Source: a virus (taxonomy: Duplodnaviria > Caudoviricetes). Taken from it: a stretch of 64,000 nucleotides of DNA. A program made the translations under genes and the position numbers. The notes below the pieces were generated by a model. The model worked only from the letters and a program-made list of their open reading frames with translations, searched no databases and was not told where the DNA came from. Below are positions 43,105 to 43,700 of the stretch, one piece after another. The stretch spans positions 1-64,000 of IMG/VR virus record IMGVR_UViG_3300023053_000008. One strand, 5' to 3'. The stretch's first letter is position 1. The number at the start of each line of letters is the position of its first letter.

Positions 43105-43700
43105 TGATACTCTTTCGGGGATTTGCAGTTAAACGTGTTAGTTTTAGTTACCTCCAAGTTACTAAAGACACAGGAGAGGGACTAGTCATCCCTCTTCAAA
43201 CCTATTATTTTGGGTATTAAAAGATTAATCTAAATTATTAATATTATACAGTTTTACAGACGTATATCAATACCACCTAATACACAAACAATTAAGTTAG
43301 TCCCTTGGACTTTAAACATTGATATACAGTAAAAGAATGTCATTAAGGAATCTATGTAAATGAGTCAATAATACATATTGAATATAATAATAAATTCTTA
43401 GATACTTAATGAAGTCTATTTTTAGTCTCCCCTAAAGATATTGTATAATAGTAGTTTTACGGGTTAATTTTTTATACATATAAAAACCTTTGATAACTTA
43501 ATACTTAATGAAGCATGTTTAATGCTTTTTGTGCTAACCGACGGTACAGCCATTATTTTTCTTTTTTGAACTTATAAGTATCTACCCAGTCTATAAGCTC
43601 GAATGTTGTGATGTATGATTTCTATTCTTTTTACTTTTTTACAATACAAAAGAAGTGAACAAGTCAAATTATTTAATTTTCGTTTCCTGTCAATCAAACG
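43105..43700 (+). ncRNA. Candidate large structured non-coding RNA (strand inferred from the upstream tRNA-like elements)
   Basis: About 600 nt with no ORF in the track; nested long-range helices, many hairpins and internal direct repeats found by eye. Confidence 0.45.

Follow-up and report, generated by a model that had tools for sequence, protein, structure and literature searches.

The tRNA locus and its predicted transcription unit

The DNA analysed here, referred to as the window, consists of the first 64 kb (64,000 nucleotides) of an 80-kb IMG/VR virus record (IMGVR_UViG_3300023053_000008), whose CheckV completeness is 31% and whose GC content is 29%. It encodes the N-terminal piece of a non-virion RNA polymerase beta subunit (39451-40920, minus strand) that shares 50% identity with gp105 of AR9/PBS1, and the order of the ligase, HU and polymerase genes is common to this phage and AR9. 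The phage was therefore regarded as an AR9-like jumbo phage. Its endolysin (45793-47364, minus strand) has glucosaminidase, amidase_3, SH3_3 and SPOR domains. The N-terminal glucosaminidase domain shares about 60% identity with proteins of Muribaculaceae and other Bacteroidales from gut metagenome-assembled genomes, and the remainder is nearest to Brevibacillus. Because the N-terminal domain is nearest to such Bacteroidales proteins, the designation as a Firmicutes phage is not established, and the endolysin matches, split between Bacteroidales and Brevibacillus, appear ambiguous in this respect.

As shown in Table 1, the locus is a short island of plus strand elements. Its three tRNA-like genes are the only ones in the 80-kb record. 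The main comparison was made with L006, a 229-kb Logan contig found by a polymerase search, which has the same layout as the window and a polymerase piece that is 93% identical. The 6-nt anticodon loops of tRNA-like 2 and tRNA-like 3 are both retained in L006 despite two positions that differ between the lineages in the loop of gene 2; the non-canonical loop length is therefore conserved.

Table 1. Features of the plus strand island and of the stretch that follows tRNA-like 3.
Feature	Position	Strand	Evidence or remark
HU gene	42212-42493	+	first element of a short + strand island among - strand genes
Terminator hairpin after HU gene	42503-42532		
tRNA-Tyr	42542-42614	+	in the island
Late-promoter-like motif AACAAAAATATA	42665-42676	+	AR9 consensus; predicted start A 42676; 107 nt upstream of tRNA-like 2
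tRNA-like 2	42783-42852	+	in the island
tRNA-like 3 (6-nt anticodon loop, encoded CCA)	43028-43104	+	ARAGORN and Rfam tRNA model, 42.3 bits
ORF-free stretch	43105-43700		after tRNA-like 3
Linker, mostly unpaired, invariant	43105-43134	+	no change between the two lineages
Hairpin H-a (TTTAGT/ACTAAA arms), loop CCUCCA, invariant	43135-43171	+	single-sequence and consensus folds
Hairpin H-b (GAGGGA/TCCCTC), 9 bp	43173-43197	+	pairing kept in L006
Four-way-junction domain	43214-43478	+	fold z, L006 fold, mutant test, compensatory pairs
P1 closing helix	43214-43250 with 43441-43477	+	30 bp
P2	43252-43334	+	
P3	43340-43412	+	
P4	43417-43440	+	
Candidate terminator: one or two hairpins, then U-rich tract	43510-43575	+	in both lineages, inferred
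Variable tail/spacer	43576-43700		runs to bidirectional terminator
Bidirectional terminator hairpin, 17 bp	43710-43749	both	terminator scan; U10 run on - strand
DUF5049 gene	43755-44021	-	ended by the bidirectional terminator

The original prediction, made by reading the letters, had described the stretch after the tRNA-like genes as free of ORFs and had called non-coding DNA of this length rare in the window, and both statements were borne out. Region 42494-43754 is the longest gap in the window without an ORF of at least 80 aa. Small ORFs of 38, 41 and 47 aa lack a Shine-Dalgarno sequence and were ruled out as genes because they are broken in L006, where the 38-aa ORF at 43104 meets a stop at codon 24 and the others are frameshifted. 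The runner-up among ORF-poor gaps (14049-14789, 741 nt) carries two early-promoter-like motifs on the minus strand (14210 and 14165).

The late-promoter consensus of AR9 is AACA-N6-T-A/G (PMC5312081). The matching motif AACAAAAATATA lies between tRNA-Tyr and tRNA-like 2. L006 has kept it, and its surroundings (52 nt) share 83% identity with DNA upstream of the HU gene in the distant relative L009. Within 150 nt upstream of genes, the late-promoter motif shows a 4.3-fold enrichment in the window, where it stands ahead of the genes for capsid, terminase, endolysin and HU; no copy was found between tRNA-like 3 and the four-way-junction domain. Strict AACAWANNTATA motifs occur four times in the 64 kb, three of them in the plus strand island, with two before the HU gene (42075-42086 and 42151-42162) and one before tRNA-like 2 (42665-42676). 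This cluster may represent late promoters that are unusually strong or form a class of their own. Early-type motifs stand beside the late-type ones: on the minus strand, TAAATATATATTAT-N6-G motifs at 45731, 44699, 41453, 14210 and 3021 match the AR9 early-promoter consensus AAATATATATTAT-N6-G, and both AR9 promoter classes therefore appear to be common to the window phage. A sigma-70-like promoter on the minus strand (43270-43243) was rejected, its spacer being 2 nt shorter in L006 and such matches occurring at chance level (25 vs 24.5 expected).

The original proposal that the stretch could be co-transcribed with the tRNA mimics fits this layout of promoter and terminators, which suggests co-transcription with tRNA-like 2 and 3. 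On the simplest reading, a single late plus strand transcript would comprise a leader, tRNA-like 2, a spacer, tRNA-like 3, the hairpins, the four-way junction and a terminator. The strong U10 terminator of the minus strand would block antisense read-through into the region.

Distribution and sequence divergence of the stretch

Membership in GOLLD or ROOL, one of the two identities first proposed for the stretch, was rejected, cmscan on both strands giving no match to either family even at E <= 10, in the window or in L006. Searches of Rfam 15 (window at the gathering threshold; pieces of 2.2 kb and 0.4 kb at E <= 10; L006 copy) returned only tRNA (RF00005), three times, and the best non-tRNA score was 28 bits against a gathering score of 80. 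No match was obtained when the 2.2 kb were compared by blastn with 50,697 phage records (INPHARED). A covariance model of the domain (R1; 273 positions, 68 pairs) finds the window and L006 copies only. Beyond these it detected no copy in the remainder of the 80-kb record, the complete AR9 genome, the syntenic 11-21 kb of four other relatives or five bacterial genomes, and the matches in the AR9 genome, by DNA as well as by R1, were at chance level. The stretch likewise has no second copy in any of these bacterial genomes, in AR9, or elsewhere in the 80-kb record and 21 kb of L006.

L006 is the sole diverged relative found. The phage itself is present in the samples JGI 3300022895, JGI 3300028184, ENA ERZ27256736 and SRR12632059. 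An identical HU protein occurs on 38 contigs, and the three copies fetched are 100% identical across the region; the HU protein of L006 was found on the L006 contig only in the protein database search. Viral-contig scans anchored on the HU, DUF5049 and polymerase proteins found nothing, an exact-pattern scan of viral contigs with two 18-mers gave chance matches only, and a 21-mer retrieved from metagenome contigs one JGI contig of the same phage (99.9% identical). In five more distant relatives (AR9, L008, L009, L081 and L082), the HU and polymerase genes are immediate neighbours, and protein genes follow the HU gene directly, with no tRNA or long non-coding region in between. It follows that the block is an addition specific to its lineage, and one that the phage group can dispense with.

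As a neutral yardstick, four-fold synonymous sites of eleven flanking genes were used, of which about 11% differ between the window and L006. Compared with L006, tRNA-Tyr differs at none of its 73 positions and tRNA-like 3 at one of 77. Next to them, positions 43094-43193 hold only 2 changes in 100 against about 11 expected, whereas 43251-43700 shows 12-14% substitutions and 25 gap columns. The constraint on primary sequence is therefore limited to the first ~100 nt, and the rest of the stretch drifts at the neutral rate, including the four-way-junction domain (12-13% different) and the end of the stretch (43561-43700, with 13% substitutions and 9 gap columns).

Folding and structure conservation

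All eight helix arms that had been predicted with coordinates lay exactly where they had been placed, and the arms of the remaining hairpins were present too. The whole 596-nt stretch folds better than its shuffled controls on the plus strand (z = -2.78) and less clearly so on the minus strand (z = -0.86), as the original prediction required. This signal was traced to the domain 43214-43478, which reaches z = -3.84 on the plus strand (none of 200 shuffles as stable) and -1.10 on the minus strand, the flanks being ordinary (43105-43213, z = -0.68; 43479-43700, z = -0.85). The domain forms a four-way junction in which no pseudoknot was detected. The genome is generally more structured than its own shuffles: 69 random 265-nt windows gave a mean z of -0.9 (sd 1.8). 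Since 6 of these 69 reach z <= -3, the folding energy of the domain alone is unexceptional, within the top ~5-9% of the background.

Strong local folds were also seen at two other places of the window. Between the ORF 33481-34446 and the Gp23-like major capsid gene 34510-36093, both on the minus strand, lies a perfect 16-bp hairpin (34440-34530, z = -7.7 on the minus strand), most simply a strong bidirectional terminator. At 59920-60110, a very strong fold on the minus strand (z = -8.3) contains a helix of about 24 bp, in which the sequence just past the stop of ORF 60101-60442 (minus strand) pairs with the first codons of ORF 58686-59957 (minus strand), right after the AGGAGG and ATG of the latter. 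This structure looks like a sequestration of the start region or a translational coupling of the two genes.

Conservation of structure in a related phage, on which the original prediction had been made to depend, was found in L006. Folded independently, the L006 domain gave the same architecture of a long closing helix and three hairpins (corresponding strand, z = -4.84; opposite strand, z = -2.56), and its folding energy (-54.3 kcal/mol) is close to that of the window domain (-53.6 kcal/mol). In a substitution-mapping test, the L006 changes were placed on the fold derived from the window only and permuted among positions of the same base. On the plus strand, 22 pairs were broken vs 34.6 expected (permutation, P = 0.0002) and 4 pairs were compensatory vs 1.0 expected (permutation, P = 0.016); with only two diverged lineages, the covariation rests on 3-5 pairs. 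The effect was confined to 43216-43476 (9 pairs broken vs 14.2 expected, 3 compensatory vs 0.67 expected), and no structure-conservation effect was seen for 43477-43700 on the window-derived fold by the same permutation test. The minus strand was weaker in this test.

In a second test, the same 31 substitutions and three deletions were introduced into the window domain at random positions (n = 600). The random mutants folded at -36.6 +/- 4.9 kcal/mol vs -54.3 for L006, and 0 of 600 reached the L006 value. The domain had the lowest z (-3.6) among 30 segments taken from the 21-kb alignment. The mutant test overstates the significance if both descendants are less stable than their common ancestor was, although an ancestor of that kind would stand out even more strongly. 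The 29 other 265-nt segments ranged from -3.34 to +1.23, and the only one below -1.9 lies inside the DUF3307 gene. On the minus strand of the domain P was 0.013, some signal being expected there because any Watson-Crick helix gives it. The test was not significant for 43105-43213 and gave a weak plus strand signal for the tail 43479-43700 (P = 0.023; minus strand, P = 0.97); the spacers between the tRNA-like genes, used as controls, gave P = 0.31 and 0.39.

The individual changes are of the same kind. In the GTATATCAAT/ATTGATATAC arms, an A-U pair in one lineage is G-C in the other. P3 shows an A-U to G-C change and has lost two outer pairs, and P4 shows G-C to A-U and U.G to C-G. In P1, four changes affect one side of a pair only, and each is an A-U/G.U exchange, which keeps pairing on the plus strand alone. 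At the base of the H-b stem, three substitutions all preserve pairing (G-C to U-A, G.U to G-C), and the bidirectional terminator carries a compensatory C-G to U-A in L006. The fold is thus kept and compensatory changes are in excess, which for two lineages gives modest support for a selected RNA in the general sense. As for the short hairpins listed in the original prediction, TTTAGT/ACTAAA and GAGGGA/TCCCTC are kept in L006, while three others are lost: AAGCAT/ATGCTT through a 9-nt deletion, TCAATA/TATTGA through an A.C mismatch, and CTTATA/TATAAG, in the register first given, through a register shift. In the candidate terminator, a hairpin around GUxCUAACCGACGGUAC with U runs after it is present in the two lineages, although its detailed form differs.

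Two possible contacts of the RNA were also considered. The C-rich loops (CCUCCA, ACCACCU and CUCC) could, as a speculation, act as anti-Shine-Dalgarno sequences; these loops are not statistically enriched. Complementarity to the D and T arms of the tRNA-like genes was discarded, the matches of 11-16 nt occurring at about chance frequency by estimate.

Interpretation of the stretch

Taken together, these features suggest that the stretch contains a selected and expressed structured RNA on the plus strand, a reading to which a probability of about 0.5 is given. The RNA is smaller than first proposed. Instead of one large RNA of some 600 nt, the comparison with L006 points to about 265 nt (43214-43478) plus the two hairpins after tRNA-like 3, the last ~125 nt behaving as a neutral-like spacer. 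The suggestion of a new structured RNA beside the tRNA mimics likewise holds for these parts and not clearly for all 600 nt. The four-way junction is a plausible new phage RNA, and its candidacy for a new phage RNA class, neither GOLLD nor ROOL, is moderately supported.

The stretch would then be the non-coding 3' part of a plus strand unit that begins at the promoter 42665-42676, of the late (non-virion RNA polymerase) class, and extends through tRNA-like 2 and 3. Two of its pieces would be selected as plus strand RNA, namely the ~100 nt with H-a and H-b and the ~265-nt four-way junction, in which the sequence drifts neutrally and the helices are preserved; the last ~125 nt would be spacer. 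Processing of tRNA-like 3 by enzymes of the RNase P and RNase Z type could free a discrete RNA of ~370-470 nt, with its 5' end set by tRNA processing at about 43105 and its 3' end either at the hairpin and U-tract of 43510-43575 or at the bidirectional terminator. This RNA would owe its stability to the long P1 helix. As a structured non-coding RNA it might act in late infection, and a platform or decoy that binds protein or RNA is the most plausible role.

The chief alternatives to this reading are a trailer acting in cis and a spacer with chance pairings. The stretch could be nothing but a cis-acting 3' trailer, that is, an exonuclease block or a set of processing or termination signals for the tRNA-like transcript, with no separate functional RNA. 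Its place directly 3' of tRNA-like 3 on the same strand agrees with such a role, as do the terminator-like hairpins with U tracts inside it, the bidirectional terminator at its end and the fact that its most conserved part adjoins the tRNA 3' end. For a stabiliser or terminator, however, a four-way junction of 265 nt closed by a helix of 30 bp is much larger than necessary. The domain also lies 110 nt from the tRNA end and ahead of the candidate terminator, and the spacers between the tRNA-like genes are without comparable constraint, so that a mere trailer is considered unlikely. Equally doubtful is a non-functional spacer between convergent units, with chance pairings in AT-rich DNA and a conservation signal produced by a small sample. 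Such a spacer would account for the substitution rate of 43251-43700, which equals the synonymous rate, for the many indels and for the loss of several listed hairpins in L006; the 6 background windows with z <= -3, the missing block in distant relatives and the lack of a family match are also in its favour. It is difficult to reconcile with the 600 random mutants, none of which keeps the fold as L006 does, with the excess of compensatory changes and deficit of broken pairs, with the prediction of the same architecture at a better z from L006 alone, or with the 2 changes where about 11 were expected in 43094-43193.

An element acting at the DNA level is very improbable, whether an origin of replication, a site for packaging or a miniature inverted-repeat mobile element with the 33-nt inverted repeat at its ends. 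The stretch is ORF-free, has long imperfect inverted repeats and lies between convergent transcription units, and in phage K an AT-rich untranscribed gap was proposed as origin (PMC9241854). Against these points, 43105-43700 has no iterons or tandem repeats, its GC content of 23-31% equals the genome average, there is no GC-skew switch, the element is single-copy, and the fold needs G.U pairs and is far better on one strand; for these reasons an origin, a pac site and a mobile element are all unlikely. The internal hairpins, moreover, carry compensatory changes. A phage replication origin was rejected on the lack of tandem repeats, the average GC and the unchanged cumulative skew, and a miniature inverted-repeat mobile element on the single copy detected by R1 in the 80-kb record, with none in AR9, the loci of the relatives or the five bacterial genomes. 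As a separate observation, the lowest GC of the neighbourhood (12-15%) is that of 41400-41700, which lies in the divergent intergenic region between 41388 and 41663 and has an early-promoter motif; as an origin candidate it is preferable to 43105-43700.

A more elaborate form of the RNA reading, which we regard as improbable, would be a composite late RNA system of a new class. In it, three non-decoding tRNA mimics would be joined to the hairpins and the four-way junction, and tRNA enzymes would excise a stable RNA that, by itself or jointly with the mimics, binds or acts as a decoy for a host factor or the phage polymerase. Its partners might be a tRNA-targeting defence nuclease, a component of the ribosome or of RNA repair, or the phage's own polymerase. 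By analogy with GOLLD and ROOL, the product might otherwise be a higher-order RNA particle.

Returning to the selected plus strand RNA, its interest lies in a recurring puzzle, the presence of large structured RNAs beside phage tRNA genes, and an unrelated further example would widen this pattern. The setting would be an AR9/PBS1-like jumbo phage with its own polymerases, and the RNA would lie just 3' of tRNA-like genes that look incapable of decoding. If true, it would offer a compact object (~265 nt) for structure and binding studies. Were the stretch no more than a trailer, it would still be clear from this case where in 600 nt of 'structured' DNA the constraint really lies.

Relation to known RNAs

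The small stable RNAs RNAC and RNAD of phage T4 come from the T4 tRNA region and are transcribed with the tRNA cluster (PMC3014915). The candidate resembles them as an RNA encoded in a phage tRNA cluster, with a layout that is compatible with theirs and with ends that would be set by tRNA processing, but it belongs to an unrelated phage group and has another size. RNAC and RNAD measure ~120-140 nt. In murine gammaherpesvirus 68, the tRNA-miRNA-encoded RNAs consist of non-decoding tRNA-like modules followed by hairpins, which are released by tRNA 3' processing. That system belongs to a eukaryotic virus, with RNA polymerase III and microRNA biology, and has no relation to the candidate in sequence or host machinery; the parallel is one of analogy only. 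The long non-coding RNAs of phage K (Kayvirus) adjoin its tRNA genes and are abundantly transcribed (PMC9241854). Their position relative to tRNA genes is similar, whereas the candidate, whose expression is predicted, has no sequence similarity to any INPHARED phage.

GOLLD (RF01998) and ROOL (RF03087) are large non-coding RNAs of phages that occur beside tRNA genes (bioRxiv 10.1101/2024.12.08.627333). The conserved structured part of the candidate extends over ~265-370 nt, compared with ~600-800 nt in these families, and their pseudoknots and conserved sequence blocks are not seen here; the candidate is known from two lineages only. ROOL has a multi-pseudoknotted fold of about 500-600 nt. As with GOLLD, which is located in phages or prophages near tRNA genes, the candidate lies in a phage, directly 3' of three tRNA-like genes, and it shares with both families that it is phage-encoded, non-coding, multi-branched and placed beside tRNA genes.
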